Positions 16,369-64,000 of a stretch of 64,000 bases of DNA are shown one piece after another; positions within the stretch are counted from its first letter, which is position 1, and each line of letters begins with the position of its first letter. Origin of the DNA: a bacterium (GTDB lineage: Bacteria > UBA10199 > 2-02-FULL-50-16 > JAJFLM01); contig CBDCFN010000016.1 in NCBI GenBank assembly GCA_965216315.1, positions 608,001 to 672,000 of the forward strand. The letters are read 5' to 3'. A program made the position numbers and the translations under genes. The notes below the pieces were generated by a model. That model was not told where the DNA came from and ran no database searches. It worked only from the letters and a program-made list of their open reading frames with translations.

Positions 16369-16382
16369 AAGACAGTCCAAAA

Positions 16383-45313: not shown

Positions 45314-46266
45314 GTTCTTGTCAGCGTTCGTCCTTGATCGGTTCATTTATTCAGAAATTCTTTTTTACGATTGCACTGCTGTTGGCCTTGGTTTGTGGAC
45401 TTATCTGGCCGCAACCTGCGGTAGGCCTTGCGCAGCACCGAAGTCTCTTGCTGTTTGTTGTGATGTTTATGGTGGGGCTTGAGCAACATTTGCCCGCCTT
45501 GGCAGCACAATTTCGCAAGGTAGGTGCCATCAGCCTCAGTTTGATATTGAGTTTCATCGTCTTTCCCATTTTATCCTGGGCCGTAGCTCAGTTATTTTTT
45601 AATTTTGGCGTAGGGGCGCCGCTTGCTGCGCCTGTTATTGCCGGATTCGTTGTGCTTGGGGCCGTCCCAACGACTTTGACGTCAGCCGTGATTTATACGC
45701 GACTCGATAAGGGAAATGATCGTCTTGCTCTCATTATCGTTTTGCTCAGTCAGTTTCTTTGTGTGCTGGTGACACCGGCGCTGGTATCGCTTTTTCTCGC
45801 CAAGACAACGGAACTTAATTTGGCCCAGATGATCATTCAATTATGTCTTTATTTCCTGTTGCCGCTTGCGCTCGGCATGCTATGCGGACGCTTTTTGCCG
45901 CTTGAGAAATTGAAACCTTATTTAATGCGGCCGGAACAGCTTATTGTCGCACTCTTTGTCTTTATGGGGGCCGGCCATATTCCACGGGAGACGGCCTTGA
46001 GTGTTGTCGCCAAGTGTTTCTTAGCCGTGATTCTATTGCAGCTTGGCTATGTTGTGTTGATCCGGCTAGTGATTAAAAAATTTAATTCAAATGATCAGAC
46101 GGCACTTTTTTTTACCTCTTCTCAAAAGACGTTATCGGTGGGGTTGTATTTATTGCTGAGTTACTTTCCCTCGGCCGCGATTCTTCCCATGGTGCTGTAT
46201 CATCTTCTGCAATTAACGATCGGGAGATTATATTGGGTTCCTCCTGATAGGGTGGGAGGCAGATAA
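45310..46266 (+). CDS. Bile acid:sodium symporter family transporter
   Basis: Multi-TM protein with VPTTLTSAVIYT...KGN and SQKTL motifs. Confidence 0.8.
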   Translation: MSSCQRSSLIGSFIQKFFFTIALLLALVCGLIWPQPAVGLAQHRSLLLFVVMFMVGLEQHLPALAAQFRKVGAISLSLILSFIVFPILSWAVAQLFFNFGVGAPLAAPVIAGFVVLGAVPTTLTSAVIYTRLDKGNDRLALIIVLLSQFLCVLVTPALVSLFLAKTTELNLAQMIIQLCLYFLLPLALGMLCGRFLPLEKLKPYLMRPEQLIVALFVFMGAGHIPRETALSVVAKCFLAVILLQLGYVVLIRLVIKKFNSNDQTALFFTSSQKTLSVGLYLLLSYFPSAAILPMVLYHLLQLTIGRLYWVPPDRVGGR

Positions 46267-46332: not shown

Positions 46333-48450
46333 TTAACGATCTTTTTTTCGGTAGCGCACGCTCTCTATCACAACGATAAAAGCCACGAAGAGCCATGCGA
46401 GCATGGGACCTGGCCGGAACGATCGCATAGCACTGAGGCTACAGCCACCACCGGCCACACCCGTCGAACCGGTCGCTACTAACAAGTAGGCGGGTGCGAC
46501 TTGATCCGTGATTGCTGTGCTGGCGTCAGCGCCGGTCATCTTGATAACTGGTCGTCCGGCTCCGTCACCGTCGCTGTCATTATCGCCGGTCCCGAGTGGT
46601 GCGTTTGGCTTCGGCAATTTAAGTGGGGGGAAGACCCTTATTTTAACGCCGAGTTTGTTGCGTTTGCCCGGCGTTTGGCTGGGCCCACCCGCCACCGTAA
46701 CCGGATCGTCAACGGTTGTCTCGGCAGCCAATTCTTCGACCGTAACGTGTTCCGGTTTGATGGCGGTAGTTGTGGCAAATCGTTCTCCATCAACAGAGGG
46801 TGCAAACTGAAAGGCACGAATCGGCGGGGAGGGCATGTCCAATCTTTTGCCTTCCGGGACAATCATGCCTTTCCAGACCTTAATATAATGTAAGAGGTTC
46901 GGCACGATTCCGCTCAGCGATGAGACCTCTCCACGTTCGCACCCCTCAACCTTTTGGGAGAGTTCGATCATTGCGGGATCGATTGCGAGTTCCAACGGGA
47001 CTTCGGGGCAGCGTTCCTCTCCTTTATCCCCCAGCCAAATCAATTCACAGGTCTCAACATCAATCGCGACGGCCGAACCTTCGCGACAGGCGAAGAGCCG
47101 CTCATCCTGTAGCTCTTCAACAACCGGTGTTTCCGGCTCCGGGGTTGTTGGTTCTGGGGTTGCCGGCGGTTGATCCGCAGGTGTTCCTCCATCCGTCAAC
47201 TCAGTCGGGATATCGGGCGGTGCATCACAAAGACATTCGGGAACGCTGACGCTGCAGCTTTCCGGTTCTTCAATTGGTTCGGGAGCTTCTGTTCTCTTCA
47301 CCGAAGGTATGGCGTCAGCCTTGACGACCCCCGCATATTCTCTTGCTGCGAAGTCAAGTCGTGTGCGGGAAAATGCGGTCGAGCGCAGTTGCTTACATTG
47401 TGATGGTGTTGTCGTAAACGTGACGTCAAAGCTGCGGCTCGAGGGACTGTACTCCAATGAATTAAAACGGATCTCGGTGCGCGGCGACAGTCCGGCAATC
47501 ATGCTCTTGATGAACTTGCGCGCGTCCGCTTCTTGTGCCGGGTGAAGACAGGGGAAACTCATGACATTGCGGAGAAAGTCGCGATGACAAATGCCCGGCT
47601 CTTCGACAGCCTGCGGTGCCTCACAGCCACAGAGCGGAGTATCTGCCGTTAGTTGTGGAGTGCGTTTACCCGGCTCTTCGATGCCTTCACGCTCTTTTTC
47701 CAGCACCCGTTTCTTGTTTAATAATTCCTGACTGGCTTCCTCGGTAAATGAGATCTGCGCGATCTTCTCCGCGGAAACTTTAATTCTAGCCCGGGTTTCC
47801 ACTTGTTCCGGAACCAATTGCTCGTAACAACCACTCATATACTCCACTTGTTGGGGTGCGAGACAGCCCATGCAGGCCAATGCGGAGGGATTCGTGGTGC
47901 AGCGACACTCTTGCGCGAGTTGCGAGTGCTGGTCAGGTCCCGCCAATAAATCTTTCATGTCGACGGCTCCGACCATACAGCAGCCCATCAGCTCTCTTCC
48001 ATAAGGACTATTGCGGAGAGTTTCGATGGTTATCTCGTTGCCATAAATGGCCGTCGCACATTTACGGCAACGTCCGTAGGCCTCCTGATCGTTTTCGTGT
48101 TGGGAGCAGGGATCATACTCTCTTTCCTCGGTACGCGGCGGTGCCGGGGCGGCTGCGGGCGGTGGCGCCTCGGCCGTCGGCGGAGACGCGATCTCCTGTG
48201 CCGGTTGGGGCGCCGGTGCCGTGGCGACGGTCGGCGGCTGTTCGGCCGTGCGCGGTGGTTGAAGCTCCCTAATCGCTTCCTCAACCAGCGGCACTGGCGC
48301 GGGCCGTCGGACGACTTCTTGCCCTGATGCCTCAACCAGGTTGGTGCGTTCCGCTTCTTTCCGTTCCTGTGAGAAACCCGAGGCCGGAAACAGGGCATTT
48401 CCCATGCTGAGGAGCAGAAACCCAACGATAATGAAGTGTTGTTTAGTCAT
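46333..48450 (-). CDS. Secreted Cys-rich protein with C-terminal GGGC-TM-basic sorting signal
   Basis: Signal peptide from ATG 48450, many Cys pairs, Pro-rich linkers, ends GGGCSLSAMRSFRPGPMLAWLFVAFIVVIESVRYRKKDR. Confidence 0.8.
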   Translation of the reverse strand: MTKQHFIIVGFLLLSMGNALFPASGFSQERKEAERTNLVEASGQEVVRRPAPVPLVEEAIRELQPPRTAEQPPTVATAPAPQPAQEIASPPTAEAPPPAAAPAPPRTEEREYDPCSQHENDQEAYGRCRKCATAIYGNEITIETLRNSPYGRELMGCCMVGAVDMKDLLAGPDQHSQLAQECRCTTNPSALACMGCLAPQQVEYMSGCYEQLVPEQVETRARIKVSAEKIAQISFTEEASQELLNKKRVLEKEREGIEEPGKRTPQLTADTPLCGCEAPQAVEEPGICHRDFLRNVMSFPCLHPAQEADARKFIKSMIAGLSPRTEIRFNSLEYSPSSRSFDVTFTTTPSQCKQLRSTAFSRTRLDFAAREYAGVVKADAIPSVKRTEAPEPIEEPESCSVSVPECLCDAPPDIPTELTDGGTPADQPPATPEPTTPEPETPVVEELQDERLFACREGSAVAIDVETCELIWLGDKGEERCPEVPLELAIDPAMIELSQKVEGCERGEVSSLSGIVPNLLHYIKVWKGMIVPEGKRLDMPSPPIRAFQFAPSVDGERFATTTAIKPEHVTVEELAAETTVDDPVTVAGGPSQTPGKRNKLGVKIRVFPPLKLPKPNAPLGTGDNDSDGDGAGRPVIKMTGADASTAITDQVAPAYLLVATGSTGVAGGGCSLSAMRSFRPGPMLAWLFVAFIVVIESVRYRKKDR

Positions 48451-48462
48451 GCTGCAATGCAT

Positions 48463-48478
48463 TGCAATTGCAGTGCCA
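48463..48478 (-). promoter_or_regulatory. Sigma-54 -24/-12 promoter
   Basis: TGGCAC-TGCAA-TTGCA; IHF-like AATCAGTATGTTA at about 48515-48527. Confidence 0.85.
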
Positions 48479-48572
48479 AAGCTGACGCGACAGGCCAAAA
48501 AATAAACTATTATAAATCAGTATGTTATGGGGGTTCGCAAAAATTCGCAACGCACTGTGCTGGCGCAGCGCA

Positions 48573-48605
48573 TTATCAAATTGAGAAAGTTTATCAAAAT
48601 GATAA
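48573..48605. promoter_or_regulatory. Tandem TTATCA-N3-TGA(T/G)AA palindromes (putative enhancer)
   Basis: TTATCAaatTGAGAA and TTATCAaaaTGATAA, about 95-130 bp upstream of the sigma-54 site. Confidence 0.65.
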
Positions 48606-48640
48606 TTATGCCTGATAAGTAGGCTATTAAAGGGCTCTGC

Positions 48641-48669
48641 AAAAAAAGGCCCCTTGGGGGGCCTTTTTT
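48641..48669. terminator. Intrinsic terminator of the 48693-49142 gene
   Basis: AAAAAAAGGCCCC-ttgg-GGGGCCTTTTTT. Confidence 0.85.
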
Positions 48670-48692
48670 GAGAGATTCTGCGTAGAGAGAGT

Positions 48693-49142
48693 CTAGAAGT
48701 CGGCTTTTCGTGCCTTCTTGAGCGCTCTGCAATTATCGAATTGAATCGCGACTTCATCGATATCTAGCGTGCAAGGATCAGCTAATGAAACGTTACCAGA
48801 CAAGATCTTACCAATGGTAACCCCCATGACAAAAACTTCATCTAATGAGGCGTCACGCTGAGCCATCAGTCGACTGACGTTGCCGATGATCTGGTCTTCA
48901 GTTAGGTAGAGCCGACGCTCACTCTTGGGCGAGACAATGTTAACAGCATATTTCTTAGCTGCCGGTTTGTTGTAGGCCGGTAGGGCGATGGCCGCCAGCT
49001 CTTCGTCTTGCTGTTTCTGTTTGTCGACGGAGACAACATAGAAAGTTCCAAAGCCGACTTCAGCTTCTTCTGCGTGACTGTTAGTAAGAGGTGACAAGCT
49101 AACGACAACGCTCAATAGAGCTAAAACAAATAGTGCTTTCAT
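48693..49142 (-). CDS. Hypothetical secreted protein
   Basis: 149-aa ORF with GGAG RBS, signal peptide ending SHA, followed by a terminator. Confidence 0.7.
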   Translation of the reverse strand: MKALFVLALLSVVVSLSPLTNSHAEEAEVGFGTFYVVSVDKQKQQDEELAAIALPAYNKPAAKKYAVNIVSPKSERRLYLTEDQIIGNVSRLMAQRDASLDEVFVMGVTIGKILSGNVSLADPCTLDIDEVAIQFDNCRALKKARKADF

Positions 49143-49412
49143 AATAGACGCTCCCGATTCAGATAGTTTGGTTTATAAATCAGACACGATTTATGTATCG
49201 AACCGAATCACTGCTCGGGTTGCGGGTCTGAAATGAGCTAACTTGATGATATTAATCCGGTTTTTCCCGATTTTCCCTCATTGTGTATAAAAAGTGTCCG
49301 AGCTGGGGAGTCAAGCCCCGGGGTATTGAGGGGTCTAAAACGGCGCCGAAAACGGGCGGCTCCGATTAGCCAATAATAATACGGCTATAATGAGACCATT
49401 CGGATCTTAAGT

Positions 49413-49428
49413 TGGCATCGGTTTTGCT
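49413..49428 (+). promoter_or_regulatory. Sigma-54-like promoter with no cognate downstream gene
   Basis: TGGCAT-CGGTT-TTGCT pointing into the 3' end of the minus-strand gene. Confidence 0.45.
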
Positions 49429-49479
49429 CAAACAGAGGGGTTGGCCTGAATGGGCGACGCGAAAAAAAATTAAAAAAAA

Positions 49480-51507
49480 TTATTTTTTCGGTGAAACGCT
49501 GAGTTTTTTGGCGCTTCGCACGGTGATGAGGAGCAAGAACGCGATGCCGAGTAAGGTCATGCCGTGATGTGACGTGCCGGTAGCGCCGAGGCTGCACGCC
49601 CCGCCCGCGAGACGATTGCCGATGGCGCCGCCGGTGCCGTTTCCGTCCTCGTTGTCTCCGGCGCTGGTGCCGTCATTCCCGGTTCCGCCGTTACCCGTCT
49701 CGCCGCCACCCGTATCACTGCCACCGGTTGGATCGCCGCCACTGCTGATACCGTCGCCGGTGAGTGAGACGGTCACACTGCTATCATTCGTGGCATTGGA
49801 ATTGATCGTCAGTGAGCCGGCGTGCGTTCCTTCGCTCGTTGGTCCGAATAAGACCTCAACCGTACAGCTGTCGCCGGCCGTGATCGTCGCCGTATCACTG
49901 CCGCAGGGATTGCTGCCACCGCTGGTGTCGACGGTGTAGTTGCTCTGATCCGAGAGGCTCAAGCCGCTGAGGATGAGATCCAACGTGCCGATATTGGCGA
50001 TGCCGACTTCTCGCGCCTCGGCAGTGGCGTCTATGTCTAACTCACCAAAATCAATGGCCGTGGGGGCAACACTGATCAAGACCTCGGTAAACTCGTCAGC
50101 GCCCATGTCGGGGGCCGCGCCGACAATGCGGTTGTCGCCGTCGAAATCAGTCGTGGGCAGATTCGTTGCCGTTCCTAGGGCTTGGTTGATACAAGGTGAA
50201 TTAACCGTCAGGTGAAAGTCCTCGGCCGCGACATTGTTGAATAACGGGTCTTCGTCGATGTTGTTGGCCGTCGTGATATCATCGACACAGGAGGGCGTTT
50301 GTTGGAGGCAGCTGCTGTCAAAGGCCGTGATGTCGTTATTTTGAATCAAGATGGTGGCACCGAGGCCGTCGACATCGAGATCATCATCCATAAAGAGATC
50401 GTCTTCCACGGGGAGCTTGGCGGCTTGGAAGTTACCCCACAGGATATTATTGGATATTTCAGCTGATCCGCTTTCTTCTTCCATGAAAAGATACAGTCCC
50501 GCGCCGCTGTTAAACGACTCATTGTCAAAGAAAGTATTGTTGATGACGTAGACATTGGCACCGAGATCGGGATCACCGGTCGAAAGACCCCCGCCATGGT
50601 TGTCCGAGGTATTCTGGTAGAAAACGTTATTGCTGATGATCGTGGTCCCGCCGGTGCCGACGAGGGCGCCGCCCCCGCTGGCCGGATCGTTGCCGGCATT
50701 CGTGTGGTTCCGGGTAAAGGTATTGTCATTGACGGTGGCGTTACCGGAGGAAAGTCCGACAATGTTAAGACCGCCGCCCGCCGCGCCGGATGAATTACCG
50801 GTAAAGGTATTTCCGGTAATGAGAGCATCGGAGGCGGAGCCATTGCCGAGGATATATAATCCCCCGCCATATTGATTGGCAGCAAAATCGGCGGTGTTAT
50901 TGGTAAATGCGGAATTTTGGACGCTGACATCGCCGTCAATCGTAATGATACTGACGCCGCCGCCGTTGGCACTGCCGCCGCGCGGATGGCTGGCGTGATT
51001 GTCATCGAACTCGCAGTTGCTAATATTCACGTCGGCGTCGTTCGTGCGAATCAAGGCGCCGCCACCGGCCCCAAAACTCTCGCTGTTACGCGTAAAGCTG
51101 AGATCATTAATAAAGATATCGGCGTCAATATCCGGAGGGGGTGCCGTGACACCGCCCGCCGTCGTGTCGATCAATAAGCCTCGTAAGGTATAATTGGCAT
51201 CGATGGTCGTGACGCCGATACCGGAACCGTTAATGGTCAAGGAGAAATTCTCTCCGTTGGAAGATACGATGTAGCTAAATGTGCCGCCGGAGGCATCAAA
51301 CACACCAGCCTCGAGATTGAGGACGTCCGCAGCCCCATTACCCTGAGCCTCGGTTAGGGCGCTTTGGAAGTCACAGATGTTATCGGAACAATCGATGTCG
51401 GGTGCCGTCGTGACCGTATAGGTCTTGGCATACACGGAGGATATACCGGCGCTGACGATGAAAAGACTGAGGCTAGCGATTAGAAAAGCAAAAACGGCTT
51501 TTCCCAT
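49480..51507 (-). CDS. Surface protein: right-handed beta-helix (GGG/FxxN repeats, choice-of-anchor Q-like) plus Ig-like choice-of-anchor D-like domain and GGAC-TM sorting signal
   Basis: FTNNTA...GGGL repeats, DFHLTVNSPCIN...DFDGDNR...DMGADE, IDFG...N.G..DL...C...F.P...LTINSN...VSLTGDG, ends AGGACSL...MTLLGIAFLLLITVRSAKK. Confidence 0.85.
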   Translation of the reverse strand: MGKAVFAFLIASLSLFIVSAGISSVYAKTYTVTTAPDIDCSDNICDFQSALTEAQGNGAADVLNLEAGVFDASGGTFSYIVSSNGENFSLTINGSGIGVTTIDANYTLRGLLIDTTAGGVTAPPPDIDADIFINDLSFTRNSESFGAGGGALIRTNDADVNISNCEFDDNHASHPRGGSANGGGVSIITIDGDVSVQNSAFTNNTADFAANQYGGGLYILGNGSASDALITGNTFTGNSSGAAGGGLNIVGLSSGNATVNDNTFTRNHTNAGNDPASGGGALVGTGGTTIISNNVFYQNTSDNHGGGLSTGDPDLGANVYVINNTFFDNESFNSGAGLYLFMEEESGSAEISNNILWGNFQAAKLPVEDDLFMDDDLDVDGLGATILIQNNDITAFDSSCLQQTPSCVDDITTANNIDEDPLFNNVAAEDFHLTVNSPCINQALGTATNLPTTDFDGDNRIVGAAPDMGADEFTEVLISVAPTAIDFGELDIDATAEAREVGIANIGTLDLILSGLSLSDQSNYTVDTSGGSNPCGSDTATITAGDSCTVEVLFGPTSEGTHAGSLTINSNATNDSSVTVSLTGDGISSGGDPTGGSDTGGGETGNGGTGNDGTSAGDNEDGNGTGGAIGNRLAGGACSLGATGTSHHGMTLLGIAFLLLITVRSAKKLSVSPKK

Positions 51508-51562
51508 GAGACCCTCCACGAGATAGGTTCTGTGAGTCAGCACCCCTGCAGTACATTAAAGA

Positions 51563-51578
51563 AGCAATGTCTGTGCCA
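51563..51578 (-). promoter_or_regulatory. Sigma-54 -24/-12 promoter
   Basis: TGGCAC-AGACA-TTGCT; IHF-like TTTCAACATCTTA at about 51617-51629; degenerate palindrome TTCTCAaaaTGAGGA at 51674-51688. Confidence 0.85.
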
Positions 51579-51720
51579 AATAGAACGGGAGGGCGGTAAA
51601 TAATAATTTCTAGTTATTTCAACATCTTACTTGGGATTCCTTCGTCAGGGCTTGAGGAGTGGGGCCCTTTTGATTCTCAAAATGAGGATGAAGCGTCGAA
51701 ATACTGACGCCCTGGGTTCT

Positions 51721-53571
51721 TTATTCACGCGTCTTGCTGAACCGCTGGACCGTCGACAAAGCTAAAAAGGTCATCAGCAAGAGCCAGAGCAGGGCGCTGT
51801 GACTCCCCGTAACCGGTCCCGTTCCCGTCAAAGACGCGCCGCAGGCACCGCCCTTAAGCTTGACGCTCATGACCGGGAGCACGATGTAATCGACCTTGCC
51901 CTCGCTGAGATTTGAATTCAGTGCCGTAGAGAAGTTCTGTTCGTAAATGTTGTCCGGGTTCTTTTGAATATAGACGGATTTACTGTTGTTCGCATTCGTG
52001 GCGATCACAACCTCTTCACGACTCAATGATCCCAGGGTGGCCGTTGCCGTGCCATCGATAACGGAATTTTGCTGCATGCGTAGCGATTTGACGATGAGAT
52101 TGGCTGTCTTATGTTCCACCCAGCGCTCGGCGAGAAAGCGGGCGGGGACCGTCATGCGTTGACGGGCCTCGGCGACGGTGATGCGATCCGCGTGGAGGTC
52201 CTCCCAGATCGTGATGAGCTCCTGGTACTGAGCCCAGTTTTCTTCGTTGCCTAATTCAGACGGAAAGACCGGCATGCTCATCAGGTCAGCGACGAGCTCG
52301 CGATTCGTTTCGACCATGCCTTCGGTGCCGTCGCAGACAACTTTGTTGCCGTCCGCCATGCCGAAGCAGATCTGAGCGGTTTGCGGATTGACGGGGGGCT
52401 CATCGATAATGATGGGGTCGTCCGGTTCCGGTTCCGGTGTGGTTTCCGGTTCCGTCGGTTCGGAACACTCACAGGCAGGAAACTGAATCAGGCATTCCTT
52501 CGGTTCACGGTTCTCGGTCAGCAGCACCTCTTTTCTTGCATCCACCAATGCGGTTTCTTGGACCGCATTAGGGTCATAGGACCCATCGATCATCGATTGA
52601 AGCCGCTGACAGGCGCTCTCCGGAGCTTGAATATTTAACGTGTAACCACCGAGCTCGTTTGCGCTGATGTTGATCCCGAGCTTTTTCCAGTGGTCGACCT
52701 GTTCGGGATAGAGGCACTGGACGTAACCCCAGAGATTAATGTCTCGTTCGACTTGTTTGACTCGATAGTACTTGCTGGCGATTTCGCGATCCAATGCGAT
52801 ATTTTTCGTCAGTCGATTTTCTTCGGTTTCCTTGACCTCATGTTGACCACAATAAGCGGTTCCGACATTCTGCGGATTGTCGCAGCCGCACAGTGCAATT
52901 TCTTTAGAGCGCGTACAGCACTGGTGGGTCTCCGGAAGGTATTCGGCTCGAGAATCATGACAGAATTGCTCGCCGTCATTGATCTCATCTTTGAGGTAAC
53001 TCTCGATGATATCAGGGTCGGCGGTTTTCGCCGGCGAATCATAACAATTCAAGACAGAGGCCGTGTTGCTTTCGTCGTCATAGACAAAAGAAAAGTCGTC
53101 GTGACATTCATCAATCTTGTCGAGTTGATGGGCCTTGCCGAAACAGGAAAAACAGGCGGTATTGAGCGGATTCCGCTGACAGGAACAACTGAGTCGCGCC
53201 GTCGTGACATCCTCGGCGCTTTGGGGTTCGGCGGTGATGGTACCCTTAACGCAGCAATCAACAAGATCTGCAATGGGCGTATAGCGGGAGATGTTGACAT
53301 CGAGACGATTCACCAGGCTGCGCGAGGCATCGTTTGTAAACATTGTATAGTTTTCACAGCATTTTAAGGCTTGCTCTTGTTCTGCTGGGGATTCGTAACG
53401 AGCGGCGATGAGCGAACAGGTATCAAGGGCTTCAGCGGGCTCAGCGGCGGCGGGAGCGGGAGCTGGCGCCGGTACTTTGCCGACGGTCTCTTCTTGAGCT
53501 TGAATGGACTGAATATTTAAAAAGGTGAGTCCGGTAATAAAAAGGAGTGATAAGAGCCTACGTACCGCCAT
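51721..53571 (-). CDS. Secreted Cys-rich protein with C-terminal GGAC-TM-basic sorting signal
   Basis: AAAGGA RBS, signal peptide ending IQA, more than 20 Cys, ends LKGGACGASL...ALLWLLLMTFLALSTVQRFSKTRE. Confidence 0.82.
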   Translation of the reverse strand: MAVRRLLSLLFITGLTFLNIQSIQAQEETVGKVPAPAPAPAAAEPAEALDTCSLIAARYESPAEQEQALKCCENYTMFTNDASRSLVNRLDVNISRYTPIADLVDCCVKGTITAEPQSAEDVTTARLSCSCQRNPLNTACFSCFGKAHQLDKIDECHDDFSFVYDDESNTASVLNCYDSPAKTADPDIIESYLKDEINDGEQFCHDSRAEYLPETHQCCTRSKEIALCGCDNPQNVGTAYCGQHEVKETEENRLTKNIALDREIASKYYRVKQVERDINLWGYVQCLYPEQVDHWKKLGINISANELGGYTLNIQAPESACQRLQSMIDGSYDPNAVQETALVDARKEVLLTENREPKECLIQFPACECSEPTEPETTPEPEPDDPIIIDEPPVNPQTAQICFGMADGNKVVCDGTEGMVETNRELVADLMSMPVFPSELGNEENWAQYQELITIWEDLHADRITVAEARQRMTVPARFLAERWVEHKTANLIVKSLRMQQNSVIDGTATATLGSLSREEVVIATNANNSKSVYIQKNPDNIYEQNFSTALNSNLSEGKVDYIVLPVMSVKLKGGACGASLTGTGPVTGSHSALLWLLLMTFLALSTVQRFSKTRE

Positions 53572-53718
53572 GCGTTGTCCTTTCCGACCCTCTACCCGAA
53601 TGACCCTTCAATTTTTATCATCCCAACGTAAGACCATTATCGGGAAGGGGGCCCTAACGAGTTGCGGCGGATGAGGCGCTAATTATTGCGAATAGTTGTA
53701 AGGGCCCGCGGAAACGGA

Positions 53719-53751
53719 ATAGGCCGCTGCCCTTAAGGGGCAGCGGCCTAT
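53719..53751 (-). terminator. Strong hairpin after the 53761-55962 gene (terminator or mRNA processing/stability element)
   Basis: ATAGGCCGCTGCCC-ttaag-GGGCAGCGGCCTAT; only a weak U-tract. Confidence 0.6.
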
Positions 53752-53760
53752 AGAAAGAGT

Positions 53761-55962: not shown

Positions 55963-55976
55963 AATAAGCCGAGTCT

Positions 55977-55992
55977 TGCAATGCAGGTGCCA
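55977..55992 (-). promoter_or_regulatory. Sigma-54 -24/-12 promoter
   Basis: TGGCAC-CTGCA-TTGCA, ending 14 nt before the ATG. Confidence 0.85.
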
Positions 55993-56073
55993 TTCCCTGA
56001 AAAAAATAAAAAATAAAGTGTATTAAAATTAGGAGCTTGCAAGGAGAGGGCTGCAATGGTGGCCGCGGTGCGA

Positions 56074-56105
56074 TTATCATAATGATAAAATTATCATATT
56101 GATAA
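56074..56105. promoter_or_regulatory. Two perfect tandem TTATCA-N3-TGATAA palindromes (putative enhancer)
   Basis: TTATCAtaaTGATAA-aa-TTATCAtatTGATAA; a third variant, TTATCAaagTGAGAA, at 56193-56207. Confidence 0.7.
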
Positions 56106-56299
56106 CGCGGTTGTTGCCACGGCGTGCATTTCGTAACGTCTTAGTTCAATTGGGTTTTTTTGCATTGGCTGTCAAAAGGATGACGTTTTTTCTTATCAAA
56201 GTGAGAATTTTTCCAAAAATTAAAGGATAAAATATTAACCTATGGTTAAATAGTTAAGTAATATCAACATTTTATAAAAGATGACTTGGCGCGAAAAAT

Positions 56300-56315
56300 A
56301 GGCACGTCAATTGCT
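56300..56315 (+). promoter_or_regulatory. Sigma-54 -24/-12 promoter
   Basis: AGGCAC-GTCAA-TTGCT; IHF consensus TATCAACATTTTA at about 56262-56274. Confidence 0.8.
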
Positions 56316-56328
56316 TCCCTAAAAGAGC

Positions 56329-59300
56329 ATGATTACATCAACTTCAGCACGGATCGGGGGCGTGCTGACCTCAACCCTGACCCTCCTTCTGCTCACGATG
56401 ATTCCGGTCGCGCCGGCTCAGGGGCAAGAGCTGCAACGGGTGCGGGCCCTGAAGGCGGTGGTGACCGAAACGGCGGCGACCGATAGCAGCTACGGCGTGG
56501 CCAATGCCTGCCTCGAATCAGATTTCAAGTCCCCCGGCTTTCGGACGCATACACCGGATGTGAAGGCGGCCTTAGGGCTCGGTTTTTCGACGGACACTCT
56601 TAAGGCCCTGCTTGAACGCTCCGCGGCCTGTGACGAAAAGACCTGCACGACCGAGGATCGTCTCGCCTTGTACGAGGCCTTCATTGAGGCCCTGGCGCCG
56701 GCCTTGGATTCTAATCTGGGTCTGGATTATTCAGCGCAGCTGGACATTGAAATGCCGGCCGGTTTTTTTGCGGCTCACGCCTCGCGTGATGTTGAGAATC
56801 GTGCTTTCGTGACCGGAGATAATGCGCTCAATTACATTTACAAAAAGCTTAATGCCGCGATTAACAAAGAAGCCGGAGAGACTGCTGGTTGGGGGCCCTC
56901 CGGTGTCGTGGCCGCAGACCATAATGGCGTGATCGATTACAAAGAACTGCTTGAGCCGGTCGATCCGACGGGAAGTCGCATGATTGAATACAAGGGCAAA
57001 CGTTATTTCGTTGTCCTCGATAGCGTAGGTGCGGAACTCAGGGAAAATTCCGCATTTATCGACGGCCGACTTGAGAAGGGTGAGTTTCCCGGCGGCCGGG
57101 CCCATCTCTATGAAGTGACTCAAGATGAAGACGGGGCTTGGAGCTATACGTATCTTTTAGCTTACGATGTCGGTTACAAGCCTTATGGGATTGAGTTTGA
57201 TGCCACTACGGGAACGGTCTACGTGGCAGGGAGTGGGGGCTTCTTTGGCAGCCAGGTGGTCGGGGGCAGTATTGCGGAATTTAATATCGAAAGTGACGTT
57301 GCGACCCATTATTCCACGGTTGATCCCGAGTTCTATGCCAGTAAAGGTTGGGTTCATGGACTGACGAAGTCGATGGCCTCCTATGGGGACTATATTTATC
57401 TCACGCCGCTGACATTGCCTAATCTGACGGTCAAAACATCGCTCGATGCAGAGTCATGTGTAGGGGGAACGGCTGGTTTTGCTTTCAGGGGGTTCTGCAC
57501 AGGACCGATCGAATTTAAGTTGAGCCAGGATGAATCAGGCCAACATTTCATTACGAGTGGTGAAGGTGCCGATCAACACACGGCACCGATAGAAAGTTTG
57601 GAGAGCAGTCCGTACTTTCCGACTGCCACGACTGTTCTGGGGTACGAATCCGGCAGCATGCTCATGCATATCGCGCCGGATTTGTATCAGGCTATTTGGG
57701 TGATTTCACATACGGAAAATATGCAGACGGTTGTCAAAATGCCTTTCACGGCGGGGAGCGCGGAGAATAGCTACCGTATCCATGAAATGAAGGCGTATTT
57801 CAAGGGTCCGGTCAATGCTGTCGCGGAACTTCGCATGAAAGAACATGGCGGCATTGATTTCATTGCGCGCACTCTCAATGGCAATTTAATTACTATCTAC
57901 AATAAGCTCACTCATCAATTGAGTTACCAAATGCTGGAGCATGAGCTCGCGTGGATTGAAAGCGAAACGCCGTTTGTCTTCAACCTGAGTGATACGGTGA
58001 GCGTTCAATTTGGGATTGGTGGCGGTTGGTCGGGTGTCGAGTACGGAAAAGTCGGCGACAAAGAAGGGCTGTTTTTTCATAAGTTGCGCAGCATGGATGC
58101 GGCCTTTGCCGCAGCCGATTCGATTGGTCCGGATGGAGCCGTGACGGTAAGCGGAGAAATAGGCTTTGCCAGCAAGGAGTACCAAGAGCGCGTCAAGGCC
58201 GCGTTGAAAATCGACGAGGTCAATGCCTTTATCAAGGAGTTGGATCTTATCGAAAATCCAGGGGTCAGTGTGAGTACGGAAGAAATGAGTAGCGGGATGG
58301 GTGCGTTGATTACAACGCTTCTTGCGCTTCATGCCGGGCCTCAAGAAATGATTTATATGCACCAAGCCGGTGAGCCGAGTGACATGTTTGCCCGCTTTGG
58401 TCTGGACTTTATCGGTTTCCTTAATCACGTACGCCCACCGGCTCACCATTTTATCGAGATCGATGGTTGGAAGAGCCCGGTGACTGAATTGCAGCAGTTG
58501 GAATTTTTTGGGGCGAGGGAGAGTGAACTGCGGGAGTATGAGAGCGCGAATACCTTGGAAGCGACGGAAAAACAGGCGATCGAGCTCGAGGCGGCCGAAA
58601 AGCAAGCGCTAGAATTGGAAACAGCAGAGCGAGAGGCGATCCAGCTGGAGGGTATTAAAAAAGAGGCCATCATCTTGGAAGCGCAGGAACGTGATACCAT
58701 CGAAGCACAACCTGTTGAAGCGCAAAAGGCCTACTTGATAGAGAGTGAAAAGGTTGAAGCCCAACCCGTCGAAGCGACAAAAGTCCTGATTCAAGAAAGT
58801 ACTACGGTAGAAGCTCAACCGCTCGAAACTAAGGAGACGATTAATCTTCAAATGGAAACCACGAAGGCCGTTGAACTCAAAGCGAGTGAGACACTGAATG
58901 CTGAGATGAAGACGACTGAGGCGACTGAACTCAAAGCAAATGAGACTCTGAATGCTGAGATGAAGACCACTGATACCGTGACGAATGAGCTCAAGACGGT
59001 ACAGGAACCGGTGAGAGTCTTGGAGGAAACGCAACCGAAAATTGAAATTGAGGATTCAACAAAGGTCTATCTGAAAGCCGCTCCGACGACGGAATATCAG
59101 TTTGAATTGAAAAAGAATATTGAAGCGGATCAATGTTCCGATGATCCTAACAAGATGGAGCCGGGTATTTGTGGCTGCGGAGTACCGGACGTCGATGCAA
59201 ACAGAAATGGTGTGATGGATTGCATCGAATCCAGTCGGTCACGCTCTTCGCTCGATGAACTATGGAATCTCTTTCGCATTCGCGAGGCAATGGCCCAGTC

Positions 59301-60474
59301 GGAAGGGGATCTTCGCCTGCAAGCTTCAGGAACGACCGATGGCACCTCTGATGCACGTATCGCGGTGAGCACGGAAAGCAGTCTTGATTACCGCGCCATC
59401 CTCATTCCCTTTTTGAAGGCGTTGGTGTCGGTGCAGTATCCGAGCGAAGTGAGCTGTACCAACTTGGATCGACCGGAGAAGACTCCGGAAATTCCGGAAG
59501 ACGAGCCCAAGGATGTTCCGGAAGATGAACCGAAGGACGTGCCCGAAGACATTCCGGAAGATATTCCGGAGGATGAGCCGAAAGATATTCCGGAAGATGA
59601 ACCGACGGATATCCCGGAAGACGAACCCAAGGATATTCCGGAAGATGAACCCAAGGATATTCCGGAAGATGAGCCGGAGCCGGAAACCAGCACCGTGCCT
59701 GAGAAAACGCCAATTCCCGGAACCTTGACGAGAAAAATGCCGACGCCACCGGACAGCACGGTACCTAAGCAACCGGCGCCACGTGAACCGGGGGTCACCT
59801 TGATTCCGGTCGATACGCCGAAAGAACCGCCGAAGATTGATGATACGGTTCCCGCGGCACCGGGCAACGTCGAAGAGATTCCTTCAGTTCGAACACTGAG
59901 GATGCCGGTGACATTGATCATCTTGCGTGGGCCCGGATGGTGTCACATCGCCGATGCAGGGACCGGTTGGTTTGTCCGCGTCGACTACGACAATTATCCC
60001 GATGTCTATAACGACTGTTTGGAGTTGGATCTGAGTGAAGACTGTAGCAGCGGTGAGTGCGGAAAGGTCTCCGAAGCCGTCGCCGACTTTTTGTGGGGGC
60101 AAGACGGACCCTTTGAGGAGAGCAATCTGAAGGCCTTGCAGGATCGCTTCAGCCAATTCGTCGGCGGCAAGTCATTGGACTCTCAGTTCTCTTCCCTGCT
60201 GAGCGGTACGCTTGATGGCAGTGAGCCGGCTGCGGAAGAGGTGTCCGAGACGAAATATCGTAAGAAACTGAATGTCGATTGGGTGAAGAAGCTGGAAAAG
60301 GGCTTCTGTAAAGAAGAAGGTTGTGACAAACGCCTGCGTAAGGCGCGGGTGACTTCACAAATGAGTACGGAAGCCAGCCAGGCGGCCGTCGTTCAGTATG
60401 GTGACGTAACCGCTTTTGCCGCGCAAGCGACGGTTAGCGGTGGCCGCGGTGGGTGCACGCTAGTCCGCAGGTGA
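56329..60474 (+). CDS. Large secreted protein: globular (possibly beta-propeller) N-region, repeat-rich stalk, TSP3-like Cys/Asp motif, terminal GGC motif
   Basis: 1381 aa with signal peptide, DQCSDDPNKMEPGICGCGVPDVDANRNGVMDC, PEDEPKDI repeats, ends SGGRGGCTLVRR*. Confidence 0.82.
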   Translation: MITSTSARIGGVLTSTLTLLLLTMIPVAPAQGQELQRVRALKAVVTETAATDSSYGVANACLESDFKSPGFRTHTPDVKAALGLGFSTDTLKALLERSAACDEKTCTTEDRLALYEAFIEALAPALDSNLGLDYSAQLDIEMPAGFFAAHASRDVENRAFVTGDNALNYIYKKLNAAINKEAGETAGWGPSGVVAADHNGVIDYKELLEPVDPTGSRMIEYKGKRYFVVLDSVGAELRENSAFIDGRLEKGEFPGGRAHLYEVTQDEDGAWSYTYLLAYDVGYKPYGIEFDATTGTVYVAGSGGFFGSQVVGGSIAEFNIESDVATHYSTVDPEFYASKGWVHGLTKSMASYGDYIYLTPLTLPNLTVKTSLDAESCVGGTAGFAFRGFCTGPIEFKLSQDESGQHFITSGEGADQHTAPIESLESSPYFPTATTVLGYESGSMLMHIAPDLYQAIWVISHTENMQTVVKMPFTAGSAENSYRIHEMKAYFKGPVNAVAELRMKEHGGIDFIARTLNGNLITIYNKLTHQLSYQMLEHELAWIESETPFVFNLSDTVSVQFGIGGGWSGVEYGKVGDKEGLFFHKLRSMDAAFAAADSIGPDGAVTVSGEIGFASKEYQERVKAALKIDEVNAFIKELDLIENPGVSVSTEEMSSGMGALITTLLALHAGPQEMIYMHQAGEPSDMFARFGLDFIGFLNHVRPPAHHFIEIDGWKSPVTELQQLEFFGARESELREYESANTLEATEKQAIELEAAEKQALELETAEREAIQLEGIKKEAIILEAQERDTIEAQPVEAQKAYLIESEKVEAQPVEATKVLIQESTTVEAQPLETKETINLQMETTKAVELKASETLNAEMKTTEATELKANETLNAEMKTTDTVTNELKTVQEPVRVLEETQPKIEIEDSTKVYLKAAPTTEYQFELKKNIEADQCSDDPNKMEPGICGCGVPDVDANRNGVMDCIESSRSRSSLDELWNLFRIREAMAQSEGDLRLQASGTTDGTSDARIAVSTESSLDYRAILIPFLKALVSVQYPSEVSCTNLDRPEKTPEIPEDEPKDVPEDEPKDVPEDIPEDIPEDEPKDIPEDEPTDIPEDEPKDIPEDEPKDIPEDEPEPETSTVPEKTPIPGTLTRKMPTPPDSTVPKQPAPREPGVTLIPVDTPKEPPKIDDTVPAAPGNVEEIPSVRTLRMPVTLIILRGPGWCHIADAGTGWFVRVDYDNYPDVYNDCLELDLSEDCSSGECGKVSEAVADFLWGQDGPFEESNLKALQDRFSQFVGGKSLDSQFSSLLSGTLDGSEPAAEEVSETKYRKKLNVDWVKKLEKGFCKEEGCDKRLRKARVTSQMSTEASQAAVVQYGDVTAFAAQATVSGGRGGCTLVRR
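58873..58974 (+). repeat. Intragenic 54-bp tandem duplication
   Basis: Encodes ELKASETLNAEMKTTEAT / ELKANETLNAEMKTTD. Confidence 0.8.
59485..59685 (+). repeat. Intragenic 24-bp (and 12-bp) tandem repeats encoding PEDEPKDI
   Basis: Repeated CCGGAAGAYGARCCSAAGGATATT-like units, in frame, with no spacers. Confidence 0.9.
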
Positions 60475-60507
60475 CGTAACGGACATTTCCGTGTATCGTG
60501 TCCTGTA

Positions 60508-61533
60508 ATGACCGTTACGATTGGGGTGATCGGGGCAGGGGCATGGGGAACCGCCCTTGCCAACGTCGTGGCGAATCAGGGCTACGAGACCTTGATGTGG
60601 GCCCGTGAGCCCGAAGTCGTTGCCGCCATCAATGATCAACACGAAAATACCCAGTATCTAGCCGGTATCCAGCTCAACGAGAATATTCGTGCGACGTCGA
60701 GCCTGGAAGAGTGCTGTCAGGCCCGCGAGCTTTTGATCTCCGTCGTGCCGGCTCAATATGTTCGAGCGGTCTGGTCGGAAGCGGCCCCTTATATAAAGGA
60801 GACGACTCCCATCGTCAGTGCCTCCAAGGGAATCGAGATTAGTTCGCATCAGTTGCTCAAAGACGTCTTTGAGGAAATCCTTCCCGGAATTTGTGGACGG
60901 CAGCTCGCTTTTTTATCCGGACCGAACTTTGCGCGTGAGATTGCCGAGGGCAAGGCGGCAGCGGCCACGTTGGCGTCATTAAATACTGAAATTGTACGCC
61001 ATGCGCAGGAGCTGATCTCTTCACCTCTCTACAAACTCTATGAAAGTAACGACATTGTGGGAGTTGAAGTGGGCGGAGCGATCAAGAATGTCATCGCAAT
61101 TGCCGCGGGTATCGTCGATGGGCTGGAGCTCGGGCACAGTTTGCGCGCGTCGATGATCACGCGTGGCCTGAATGAGATGACTCGTTTCGGCGTGGCGCTC
61201 GGGGCCGACCCGCTGACCTTTCAAGGGCTGTCGGGGATGGGCGACTTGATCCTGACCTGTACCGGTGATCTTTCCCGCAATCGAACCATGGGTCTCGAAC
61301 TCGCCAAGGGAAAGACCTGCAAGGAAATCCTCGGTTCGCGCCAAACGGTGACGGAAGGGGTTTCAACCGCGCGGGCCCTCCACGAACTCGCTGCGACGAT
61401 GGATCTCGATCTGCCGATCTCGGAGCAGGTCTATCAGGTCCTGTATAAGGATAGATCATGCGCCGAGGCCCTGACGACGCTCGCGGCGCGTCCTTTGAAG
61501 GCGGAGTTGGCTGGGATTACCGTATCAAAATGA
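60508..61533 (+). CDS. gpsA: NAD(P)H-dependent glycerol-3-phosphate dehydrogenase
   Basis: IGAGAWGTALA, SKGIE, LSGPNFA, KNVIAIAAG, GMGDLILTC...SRN. Confidence 0.96.
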   Translation: MTVTIGVIGAGAWGTALANVVANQGYETLMWAREPEVVAAINDQHENTQYLAGIQLNENIRATSSLEECCQARELLISVVPAQYVRAVWSEAAPYIKETTPIVSASKGIEISSHQLLKDVFEEILPGICGRQLAFLSGPNFAREIAEGKAAAATLASLNTEIVRHAQELISSPLYKLYESNDIVGVEVGGAIKNVIAIAAGIVDGLELGHSLRASMITRGLNEMTRFGVALGADPLTFQGLSGMGDLILTCTGDLSRNRTMGLELAKGKTCKEILGSRQTVTEGVSTARALHELAATMDLDLPISEQVYQVLYKDRSCAEALTTLAARPLKAELAGITVSK

Positions 61534-61553
61534 TAATTTTATCAATTTGATAA
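61522..61553. promoter_or_regulatory. Tandem TTATCA-N3-TGATAA palindromes overlapping the gpsA stop
   Basis: GTATCAaaaTGATAA-tt-TTATCAattTGATAA. Confidence 0.68.
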
Positions 61554-61626
61554 AGGGCTCTGCTCGCTTAATGAGAAATTTACTTTATATTACCCGATGT
61601 TATAATTAGCCCTTCAAATCAATTGC

Positions 61627-61642
61627 AGGCATAGATCTTGCA
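61627..61642 (+). promoter_or_regulatory. Sigma-54 -24/-12 promoter
   Basis: AGGCAT-AGATC-TTGCA, ending 14 nt before ATG 61657. Confidence 0.72.
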
Positions 61643-61656
61643 GATTACTGAGGTTT

Positions 61657-64000
61657 ATGATGATTTCAAAACCGACCCCATTTTATTTTTTTTCAATCAT
61701 CTCAGTGACGATCCTTTTTGTTTCCGTGATCGCTCAAGCCCAACCTGAGACCGGACAAGAGGCGCCGCCGGTCGAAGAGGGTGCGCAGCGTGAAAGCGGG
61801 CAACGACCTAATGGAGCTTCGACAATCGGCGATTACGAACCCAAGGAATGCTTCAACTCAGATTTTAAACGATTGCCGTTTGCCGACATGACGGCAATCG
61901 AATCAGGGACGCGTGCCTATGCCTTTCATCCCCTTGGTACTGATATCGATGTTGTTACGAAGGCGGTCGAGATTTTCAAGCAGGCCCAAGATTGTGATGA
62001 AGCGAAGCGAGACTATGAGAATGCCAAAATTAAGCATGGCGAAAACTCACCGGAGGCTGAAAAAGCCAAGGACACAATGTGTACGGATGTCGACCGCAAG
62101 GAACATATAAAGCAGGCCCAGTTGGTGTTCGGTAGCTATTTTCCTAAGCTGCAAAGCTGGACTAAAACCGATGGCCAGCACAATACGAGTCCATGGCCCC
62201 AATCGGTCCCGGTCTCGGTCACGTCGGTGAGCACCAAAAGGGCGGATCTGACCTTTGTCCTGGAAGAGCGGGTATTAAAATATGGATATGATCACTTCAA
62301 TCGGCAGTTTGCCAGTGACTTGTCGAGGCTGGCCGGTGATGGCGAATTGTCCGATGCCCCGTTAGGCGCGGCACGTATCGCTCTTTATAATGGTGACGAA
62401 TTTATTCGCGACTATGACTTGGATAGCGTGATTTATCCTACCTCGGTGTATGCTTTTAGAGATAATGATAAGCAATTCCTTGTTGTTTTGGACAAAATTG
62501 GGGGTGATATCGTCGAACATTATGCCTATGATGTCAAAGACGATAAAAAGGAACTGTTTGAAGAGGGAAGTGTTCACTATTTTGAAATCGTCAGCGATCA
62601 GGATGGCAATGTCAGTCTGCTCCCACTGAAAACACTCAGCTCAGGGGGCATCCATCCGAACAATTTTTTGCGACACGAAGGGAAGTTCGTCGTCGTAAAC
62701 CAAGGTGGTTTTGATAAGATCAGAGGGAGCCATAACCCTGCCTTTGGAACCGTTATGGTTTGTAACAATGAATTTGAATCCTGCGACAGTAGTACGGTTC
62801 GTAGCGATGAGCATTTGCAAAAGGGATGGCTTCATGGGCATCCCTGGCATTCCGATATTCTCGGGGACAGAGTTTATTTTACAGACCTTAATCTGCCTAA
62901 CTTGTTTGCAGAGGTAACTTTTGGAGGTAGCCAGGACCATTGTAAGGAGAACTTGAAACAAATCAGTGATGAGATCGAGGGTGATCTGCAAGCTTTGAGT
63001 TTTCTGTGTGAAGGGCCGGTCGGCGTTGTTGTCGATGTGACCGGTAAAAAAGTAACGATCATGCATGGTGGCACGCAGGATGTTCACGATAATCTTGCGG
63101 TCATTACGGAATCCGCTTTATTGCCGGAAGGTGATGGGACGGAGATGCTCCGTCATGTCACGAGTGAGGGAGAGATCCATTTTGCACCGTCGATCAAGAA
63201 AATCGCTTACGTTATCAACGGCCAAGACGGTTATGATCTGCTGTTTCATTTCGACATGAAAGACGGAGAAGCGCCGAACACTTATGTGGTTTCGATGTTT
63301 AAGGGAGGTGCCCAGGGAATCGTTAACCTGTGGTTTGAAGGGGAGATGTTTGAAAAGGGCGGCTTCAAGGCGAGAGTGGAGAGCGCCAACAGCAGCTGGG
63401 TCGGTGAGTATCATCTAGCGAGCGGCGAGGTTGATTATCACCATATTAAGACTGATTTGCCGATTCGTCACCTCGGTGGTGACGGACATTTCTTTAAACA
63501 TGAGGATTCGAAACGCCAGGTGAGTATGAAACTCGGGGTCGGTCATAGCTGGTCGGCGCTCGAACGCATTTTCTTTAAAGGAGCAGGGACTGACGGCGGT
63601 GACCTTGAGGTTCTCGGCCTGGGCTCTTTGAACTCTCTGGATGCGATTGCGATTACCCGGGATGAGGCAGGTCACCCGAAGGCAATCGGCATGTGGACGC
63701 CCTCGACCGATAGTTATGCGTCACGTACCGAGCTGTTGTACGACCCCGAAAAGGTAAGAGATCTGATTAATTTCGCTGTTTTTAACCGGGCCTATACGCC
63801 GAGTGACGTGACAGCCGCAGCCGTCGCAGCCGCCAACAGTATTACAACTCTATTCGGTGGTCTCAATGATCTTAAGTTCTTTCATGGCGGCGAGGATTTT
63901 GATCTGATGGCCCGTTTTGGTTTTCCCATCGATCTCGTTTCGCAAGTGGTTCCCGCCCCGAAGTTGGAAGCGGGCAAGCAAGTTTCTTGGCTCCCTGATT
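61657..64000 (+). CDS. Large secreted protein, paralog of 56329-60474 (runs off window)
   Basis: Not in the ORF track (no stop in window). MMISKPTPFYFFSIISVTILFVSVIAQA signal peptide; frame reads open to the window end (...KQVSWLPD); shares collinear motifs with 56329-60474. Confidence 0.85.
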   Translation, partial: MMISKPTPFYFFSIISVTILFVSVIAQAQPETGQEAPPVEEGAQRESGQRPNGASTIGDYEPKECFNSDFKRLPFADMTAIESGTRAYAFHPLGTDIDVVTKAVEIFKQAQDCDEAKRDYENAKIKHGENSPEAEKAKDTMCTDVDRKEHIKQAQLVFGSYFPKLQSWTKTDGQHNTSPWPQSVPVSVTSVSTKRADLTFVLEERVLKYGYDHFNRQFASDLSRLAGDGELSDAPLGAARIALYNGDEFIRDYDLDSVIYPTSVYAFRDNDKQFLVVLDKIGGDIVEHYAYDVKDDKKELFEEGSVHYFEIVSDQDGNVSLLPLKTLSSGGIHPNNFLRHEGKFVVVNQGGFDKIRGSHNPAFGTVMVCNNEFESCDSSTVRSDEHLQKGWLHGHPWHSDILGDRVYFTDLNLPNLFAEVTFGGSQDHCKENLKQISDEIEGDLQALSFLCEGPVGVVVDVTGKKVTIMHGGTQDVHDNLAVITESALLPEGDGTEMLRHVTSEGEIHFAPSIKKIAYVINGQDGYDLLFHFDMKDGEAPNTYVVSMFKGGAQGIVNLWFEGEMFEKGGFKARVESANSSWVGEYHLASGEVDYHHIKTDLPIRHLGGDGHFFKHEDSKRQVSMKLGVGHSWSALERIFFKGAGTDGGDLEVLGLGSLNSLDAIAITRDEAGHPKAIGMWTPSTDSYASRTELLYDPEKVRDLINFAVFNRAYTPSDVTAAAVAAANSITTLFGGLNDLKFFHGGEDFDLMARFGFPIDLVSQVVPAPKLEAGKQVSWLPD

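Follow-up and report, generated by a model that had tools for sequence, protein, structure and literature searches.

What do six large exported proteins have in common when they are encoded in one cluster and all end in a Cys-containing tail, four of them with a hydrophobic helix behind the Cys and two without one? This arrangement is found in a 64,000-nucleotide stretch, here the window (G000:C16:608001-672000; contig CBDCFN010000016.1 of assembly GCA_965216315.1), of a bacterial genome of 2.96 Mb that is 98% complete. The first-pass annotation had described six clustered signal-peptide proteins (here P1 to P6), four ending in GGGC or GGAC, a spacer, a helix and a basic tail, a fifth ending in GGRGGCTLVRR and a sixth cut by the window edge, and had taken them for clients of a Cys-type C-terminal sorting pathway. 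We found all six open reading frames (ORFs) at the same coordinates, each with an N-terminal hydrophobic stretch; the tails are as described, and the assignment to such a pathway stands. Passed over were the separate helix-less tag of the fifth and sixth proteins and the coupling of a protease gene, mrt, to an lgt gene. By analogy with known systems, we lean towards the reading that both tail forms are lipid-anchoring signals, read by the genome's one myxosortase-type protease (Mrt) together with LgtB, a divergent second paralog of the transferase Lgt. The six proteins, with the tails of P1 and P5, are, in window positions:

P1, 46333..48498, minus strand: exported, Cys-rich paralog of P3 with a long tail (GGGC-SL, spacer, helix, basic end); 721 residues from a TTG start, probably about 705-709.
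Long (MYXO-CTERM-like) tail of P1, 46336..46467, minus strand: no match to a CTERM family.
P2, 49480..51543, minus strand: choice-of-anchor Q and D domains, long tail GGAC-SL.
P3, 51721..53571, minus strand: exported, Cys-rich, 616 residues, long tail GGAC-GASL; belongs to a rare family without a name.
P4, 53761..55962, minus strand: exported, 733 residues, charged helical region, long tail GGGC-SGGSL.
P5, 56329..60474, plus strand: exported, 1381 residues, N-terminal domain common to P6, short helix-less tail.
Short tag of P5, GGC-TLVRR-stop, 60448..60474, plus strand: no family in NCBIfam or Pfam.
P6, 61657..64000 and on to 64872, plus strand: exported orphan, 1071 residues, short tail GGGGC-SLRRHRIIQ-stop.

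Two classes of tail are present. On the minus strand, P1 to P4 end in GGGC, GGAC, GGAC and GGGC, respectively; in each, a spacer of about 11-15 residues separates this motif from a hydrophobic helix, after which comes a basic tail. P5 ends in GGRGGCTLVRR-stop, and the DNA 3' of the stop encodes no helix. P6 runs past the window edge to a stop at window position 64872, where its C-terminus is GGGGCSLRRHRIIQ-stop. The P5 stop lies in frame with the downstream gene gpsA, 33 bases before the gpsA start (window 60474-60508), so that read-through would fuse both proteins. We saw no sign of a P5-gpsA read-through fusion, and the conservation of the tag elsewhere suggests that the assembly is accurate at this stop.

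Both classes recur throughout the genome. Among 2505 ORFs that do not overlap one another and have 100 residues or more, we obtained 31 short and 24 long regular-expression matches. After removal of two off-motif short matches and three long ones (two polytopic membrane proteins and one without the motif), the final counts are 29 short and 21 long tails, distributed over both large contigs. Short tails follow the consensus G-G-C-[ST]-L-[IVLMR]-R, with the stop 4-9 residues past the Cys and exactly 4 past it in 16/29; position by position, the profile (n=29) has G 27, C 29, S 25, L 29, then I/V/L/M/R, then R 25. Long tails share the core GGC-SL with the short class, with L and R in at least 90% and Cys in 21/21, the Cys being part of the rule by which they were selected. 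Signal peptides were called by eye and by a crude hydrophobicity score, and one long-tailed ORF (C16:151389) lacks one. Internal long-tail motifs occur in an ORF of 2997 residues (C16:2348413-2357406) and in another of 748 residues (C16:1726230-1728476), which are possible polyproteins.

The enrichment of the motif at C-termini genome-wide, which the first-pass annotation had implied, was borne out. The strict motif [GSA][GSA]C[STA]L[ILVMR][RK] occurs 28 times in the 2505 ORFs, 27 times at most 5 residues from the stop, and the helix-less tail is carried by 28/576 ORFs that look secreted under a crude hydrophobicity rule versus 1/1929 others, with 0.37 expected from the internal rate. Short tails are closed by all three stop codons and written in varied codons. 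The DNA past their stops reads through into a hydrophobic stretch in only 3/29, each time in another frame, and the idea of a hidden helix reached by read-through or frameshift was rejected, as no consistent read-through helix exists. NCBIfam release 20 contains no family for the short tag (24/25 tails without a match, one with a weak match to an unrelated family), and neither does Pfam (17 tails searched).

We then asked how widely the tails occur in the genome's own phylum, sampled as 93 genomes from one class and 24 families. The DNA pattern GGC-[ST]L-x-R-stop gave 106 matches in 23/93 genomes, with up to 26 per genome, and its reversed control gave 9. Inspection of 30 loci showed that 26 close frames of more than 200 codons and 4 are chance matches; a clear hydrophobic start was present in 9/11 loci whose 5' end is closed. 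Lengthening the pattern by one residue brought in one more genome. In all, the short tag was verified in 21/93 genomes from 9/24 families, and long tails were found in 86/93 with a profile trained on this genome. The idea that some genomes keep mrt with short tails alone was rejected: at least one long tail is present in G063, and perhaps in G060. We also sampled 301 genomes of the phylum to which a Myxococcota-titled record belongs; there, a hand count gave 21 single matches versus about 43 for the control, none closing a frame of more than 158 codons; this is chance level for a pattern tuned to the genome's own phylum, which a variant tag elsewhere may escape.

What could read these tails? 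The co-occurring protease that the first-pass annotation had pointed to is encoded 1.23 Mb from the cluster by mrt (C16:1904925-1905716), the only CPBP gene (PF02517) of the genome. Mrt has about 220 residues, its EE-xxx-R motif and His are invariant in 27/27 aligned sequences, and it passes the myxosortase core model NF040914 with 118.1 bits (cut-off 100), as do proteins in 80/93 phylum genomes. It scores below the full-length subtype cut-offs of MrtP (175.8/250), MrtC (129.3/195) and MrtX (106.2/180), and below those of MrtJ (56.3/75) and MrtS (71.7/130). No other sorting protease scored above cut-off: the better of two rhomboids reaches 44.7/84 with the rhombosortase model TIGR03902, and the exosortase model TIGR04178 has no match in this genome (control positive in 3/14). 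A type II secretion system (T2SS) is represented by the secretin GspD (522.5 bits, cut-off 351), the only part scored. The prenyltransferase family PF00432 has no match in the genome, but the control genomes were equally silent.

With E up to 1, 10 of the 21 long tails match the MYXO-CTERM model TIGR03901, the highest score being 23 bits (cut-off 20); in a separate scan, 1/13 matches was above cut-off. Five of the 21 match the JDVT-CTERM model NF033191 at E up to 1, the best (E 3.9e-7) probably above cut-off. None of the window's own four tails is among the matches to either model. Given the myxosortase core, these matches and the secretin, the earlier claim that the helix-type system is undescribed was not upheld. 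The long tails are best seen as an extension of MYXO-CTERM into another phylum, though below the cut-off of its hidden Markov model (HMM), and by analogy they are very probably cut by this Mrt. In the preprint sections examined, Haft (10.1101/2023.06.07.544157) describes four Cys-type signals, all helix-bearing, and does not mention Lgt; MYXO-CTERM is confined there to Myxococcota and Bradymonadales, lineage-specific models are needed and low scores expected. Guo, Haft and Wall (PMC11980579) report that MrtX cleavage is Cys-dependent and also proceeds in E. coli, where it cuts TraA. They leave the lipidating transferase unidentified, with Lgt as the leading candidate, and their model requires the helix to keep the client in the inner membrane.

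The gene order around mrt offers a candidate for that transferase. In this genome we observed lgtA, a small lipoprotein-like ORF, ileS, lspA, lgtB and mrt in succession. The gene is named ileS from its sequence and is presumably that. We scored 83 mrt loci (80 above cut-off and 3 just under). Contig edges interrupt 3 of the 83, and at 78 of the 80 evaluable loci mrt has an lgt gene directly upstream; 46 of these 78 were typed by score (45 nearer LgtB, 1 ambiguous fragment), and the other 32 adjacencies rest on coordinates. In 28/47 junctions measured, the lgt stop and mrt start overlap by 4 or 1 bases. The same order at loci L004-L011 is not an independent observation, as these overlap the phylum set. 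At least two lgt genes are present in 86/93 phylum genomes. Coupling of lgt to mrt is found across the phylum. At the two loci without a preceding lgt, one genome (G026, L265) has lgtB after lspA on another contig, and in the other (G010, L262) no LgtB was seen.

LgtA and LgtB are 28% identical. LgtB passes the Pfam LGT model with 168 bits (cut-off 24.9), and its profile matches E. coli Lgt 5azb (E 3e-26). In quick IQ-TREE trees, mrt-adjacent LgtB proteins form one clade, separate from the lgt copy that keeps the standard motif, with support, by the Shimodaira-Hasegawa-like form of the approximate likelihood ratio (SH-aLRT), of 99 (96 rows) and 100 (99 rows). R143, G154, R239, E243, R246 and G104 are retained in 33/33 LgtB sequences, and N146C and E151C are as in LgtA. 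Some genomes of the phylum (L093-L103, families f8 and f18) also have members of a third Lgt clade, which is E. coli-like, has H103, N146 and E151 intact and was possibly acquired. Outside the phylum, myxosortase-positive genomes (L122-L151, L227-L261) encode 2-5 Lgt paralogs, which fall into several clades with good support and of which some lie in tandem after lspA; these paralogs are candidates for the myxobacterial transferase.

The two tail classes meet on homologous proteins. P2 is long-tailed, and its three closest paralogs in the genome (30-37% identity) are all short-tailed; in the tandem pair C16:497905/499968, one protein has a long tail and the other a short one. With a profile of P1, P3, P4 and two homologs from relatives, tail columns included, a search of 1.84 billion representatives recovered 14 proteins, including the 5 inputs. 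Of these 14 family members, 11 have a Cys tail, which is long in 6 and short or short-like in 5, and the remaining 3 are fragment-like and without a tail. Short and long tails are exchangeable on homologous proteins. In the related genome G024, a homolog (L305:3528-9428) has a tail that opens with a full short tag, GGGC-SLVR, and goes on into a helix; this tail may be an intermediate between the classes.

These observations are suggestive of a mechanism in which the proteins would be exported by Sec and lose their signal peptides, by analogy with M. xanthus. LgtB would then transfer diacylglyceryl to the thiol of the tail Cys, and the Rce1-like protease would cut just past the modified Cys, freeing the helix of a long tail or the 4-9 residues of a short one. 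The T2SS would carry the lipidated proteins to the outer surface. The short tag is most likely, in function, a minimal form of the long-tail signal, though without the helix, and short tails are probably processed by the same machinery as long ones. Whether LgtB is the lipidating enzyme we consider evenly balanced. On this mechanism, trimming of the short tag would be a bacterial counterpart of CAAX-box trimming. We advance more tentatively the broader proposal that a CAAX box of bacterial kind evolved in the phylum: a helix-less C-terminal signal of five residues (GGC-SLIR) that would be lipidated by a dedicated Lgt paralog and trimmed by a gene-coupled myxosortase of the Rce1 family.

Several points weigh against reading both tails as signals for Mrt and LgtB. 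The window's four long tails match neither TIGR03901 nor any other CTERM model. LgtB has Y26F in 30/33 sequences, has lost G142 in 31/33 and is variable at H103, and its 13-residue Lgt motif is not intact (Y235 left out of the count); LgtA retains Y26 and G142 in 20/20. According to 10.1101/2025.03.27.645668, E. coli Lgt has Y26 and H103 among its essential residues, though H103 varies in nature. Changes at these two residues mean that LgtB may be inactive or a scaffold; the changes would fit either lost activity or an altered side for peptide binding, such as an inverted substrate at the C-terminus would require. E. coli, in which MrtX cuts TraA according to PMC11980579, has no LgtB. Outside the phylum, 20 mrt-positive genomes have no lgt within the mrt flanks (up to 4 kb) and lspA-lgt adjacency occurs as well; this may simply be an old operon for lipoprotein genes that mrt joined. 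A clear myxobacterial ortholog of LgtB was not upheld, as its sister link to lspA-adjacent paralogs (91) collapsed with fuller sampling. Because mrt and lgtB are near-universal and the short tag is present in 21/93 genomes, co-occurrence cannot tie the tag to either gene. Nor does the model account for the capture of a helix-less tail after its release from Sec.

How else could the tails be explained? The short tag may be read by another factor and be neither lipidated nor cut by Mrt, marking release, disulfide tethering or binding by a periplasmic factor that recognizes C-termini, with long tails as ordinary MYXO-CTERM clients. Such an arrangement would fit the lack of a helix to hold short-tailed proteins in the membrane, the conservation, specific to the short class, of an Arg and a hydrophobic residue at the free end, and the patchy occurrence of the tag next to a near-universal mrt. 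We nevertheless consider it unlikely, given that both tails share the core GGC-S/T-L and exchange on homologous proteins, that the long tail in G024 opens with the full short tag, and that no further sorting protease scored above cut-off. A different possibility keeps Mrt for both tails and changes the transferase: the lipid would come from housekeeping LgtA or not be needed, LgtB would be either an unrelated paralog or a partner without catalytic function, and mrt would merely have joined the ileS-lspA-lgt operon. The substitutions at Y26, H103 and G142, the function of MrtX in E. coli (PMC11980579), the greater age of the lspA-lgt order compared to lgt-mrt, and the 2-5 lgt copies in 21/21 genomes sampled, 20 of them without mrt linkage, speak for it. 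It appears improbable in view of the phospholipid-binding arginines that LgtB keeps in 33/33, the variation of H103 among natural Lgts, the stop/start overlaps in 28/47 junctions and the linkage in 78/80 genomes.

Two further explanations carry far less weight. The first-pass annotation had seen in these proteins the substrates of an undescribed lineage-specific pathway encoded on an acquired surface-layer island, a view favored by the failure of the window tails to match any CTERM model, by an Mrt that lies below the MrtX, MrtC and MrtP cut-offs, and by near-orphan passengers. Mrt passes the myxosortase core, lineage-specific models are needed and low scores expected (10.1101/2023.06.07.544157), tails lie on both large contigs, and GC content and synteny indicate a native slot, all of which make this view very improbable. 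Decay of long tails into functionless short ones, by nonsense mutation, frameshift or assembly error, would explain why a short tail resembles the first residues of a long one and why its length past the Cys varies between 4 and 9 residues. With 29 copies in this genome and matches in 21 genomes of 9 families, the same SL-I/V-R ending in varied codons before all three stops, and hydrophobic read-through that is rare and each time in another frame, decay is close to refuted.

Compared to known systems, the long tails are nearest to MYXO-CTERM and myxosortase, with which they share the Cys motif, spacer, helix and basic end on dozens of exported proteins, a T2SS, a single-copy CPBP protease above the core model, and many clients that include unrelated ones. 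They differ in their phylum (93 genomes of one class), which lies outside the published range of Myxococcota and Bradymonadales, in a protease that passes no full-length subtype model and whose gene is coupled to a divergent Lgt paralog, and in the presence of a second, helix-less class that outnumbers the long one in this genome. The short tag lacks the helix and is therefore not a member of MYXO-CTERM. The JDVT-CTERM system with MrtJ and the Synerg-CTERM system with MrtS likewise combine invariant-Cys tails with cognate CPBP proteases. JDVT-CTERM has DP nine residues past the Cys and one client beside MrtJ, whereas the window tails lack DP and the genome has 50 tails; Synerg-CTERM has no spacer between Cys and helix, whereas one is present here and none of the 21 long tails matches TIGR04564.

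Likeness to the eukaryotic CAAX/Rce1 system lies in a Cys near the free C-terminus, small or aliphatic residues after it, and an Rce1-family protease as the likely trimmer. In CAAX proteins the Cys is exactly four from the end, whereas here at least 4 residues follow it in 29/29, the end is Arg, the proteins are Sec-exported, and the likely lipid is diacylglyceryl, via an Lgt paralog, rather than a prenyl group. The likeness is a functional analogy as we read it, not membership. With the N-terminal lipoprotein pathway (Lgt, LspA), the proposed system would share an Lgt-family transferase, a protease acting at the modified Cys, and genes in one operon. Unlike in that pathway, the Cys is C-terminal and without a lipobox, cleavage would fall after it, and LgtB, unlike canonical Lgt, is off-motif at Y26, H103 and G142.

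Neither the short tag nor a gene pair of lgt and a myxosortase turned up in our literature search, supplements aside. LgtB is a nameable candidate for the transferase left unidentified in PMC11980579, and if confirmed would be the first nameable transferase for Cys-type C-terminal sorting signals. The prokaryotic C-terminal sorting signals described in the literature we examined are all helix-bearing; a helix-less five-residue form would make the helix dispensable. The short tag would then mirror eukaryotic CAAX processing with a different lipid chemistry and be a very small tag for surface display. Up to about 30 proteins per genome that current HMMs miss are flagged as surface proteins in this uncultured phylum.

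As the first-pass annotation had found, most passenger domains are unrecognized: P1, P3, P4, P5 and P6 matched no Pfam or NCBIfam family. P2 matched NF041518 (31.6 bits, cut-off 25) and NF012200 (51.8 bits, cut-off 45), and its repeats suggest a beta-helix type both to us and to that annotation. Its description of the proteins as Cys-rich fits P1 (3.5%) and P3 (4.1%), and fails for the other four (1.2-1.5%, proteome 1.16%). The C-terminal half of P4 is paralogous to P3 (phmmer E 2e-16), P1, P3 and P4 are distant paralogs, and P5 and P6 are paralogous as well (E 2e-32). P3 homologs are found in 3/93 phylum genomes, its own included, and a search with P6 recovered only P6 itself among 8000 scored candidates. 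AlphaFold models of P6 and P3 (predicted local distance difference test scores 30.6 and 37.1) were too poor for a fold search; the ESM Atlas gave a weak beta-propeller lead for P6, with a score of 0.87 (under 0.9), and nothing usable for P3. Size, Cys patterns and low-complexity stalks lead us to guess that the passengers are adhesion or surface-coat modules. P5 contains one 33-residue Cys repeat (residues 934-966) and repeats of the type EDEPKDIP; at window 59400-59750, about nine tandem copies of the 8-residue acidic and proline unit probably form a stalk.

The remaining features of the locus define the slot in which the cluster lies:

SBF-like transporter gene, 45310..46266, plus strand: left flank of the slot, conserved in the relative G024.
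ORF of 149 residues, 48693..49142, minus strand: inside the cluster, with a signal-peptide-like start, no tail and no family.
gpsA, NAD(P)H-dependent glycerol-3-phosphate dehydrogenase, 60508..61533, plus strand: NF000942 409.6 bits (cut-off 257), housekeeping marker of the slot.

The cluster is broken by gpsA and by the tail-less 149-residue ORF, and comparable clusters of tail genes are present elsewhere on the chromosome. Its description as an island does not hold. GC content is 0.50-0.54 in the cluster and 0.51 in the contig, and in G024 the same flanks (PBP1A, cation transporter, pfk, terB and SBF transporter genes, then gpsA) enclose a slot that holds a single long-tailed homolog of P1 and P3 with 1967 residues. 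Between the SBF transporter gene and gpsA, local duplication and insertion have expanded the set of surface-protein genes at what is a native chromosomal slot. Just past P6, at G000:C16:673165-691848 (window positions 65165-83848), lies an ORF of 6227 residues with about 75 tandem 33-residue Cys repeats and no Cys tail at its C-terminus. Elsewhere in the window (14191-22193, minus strand), a bacterial alpha-2-macroglobulin gene (1936 residues) forms the usual pair with the PBP1C-like gene that comes after it (493 bits, cut-off 494).

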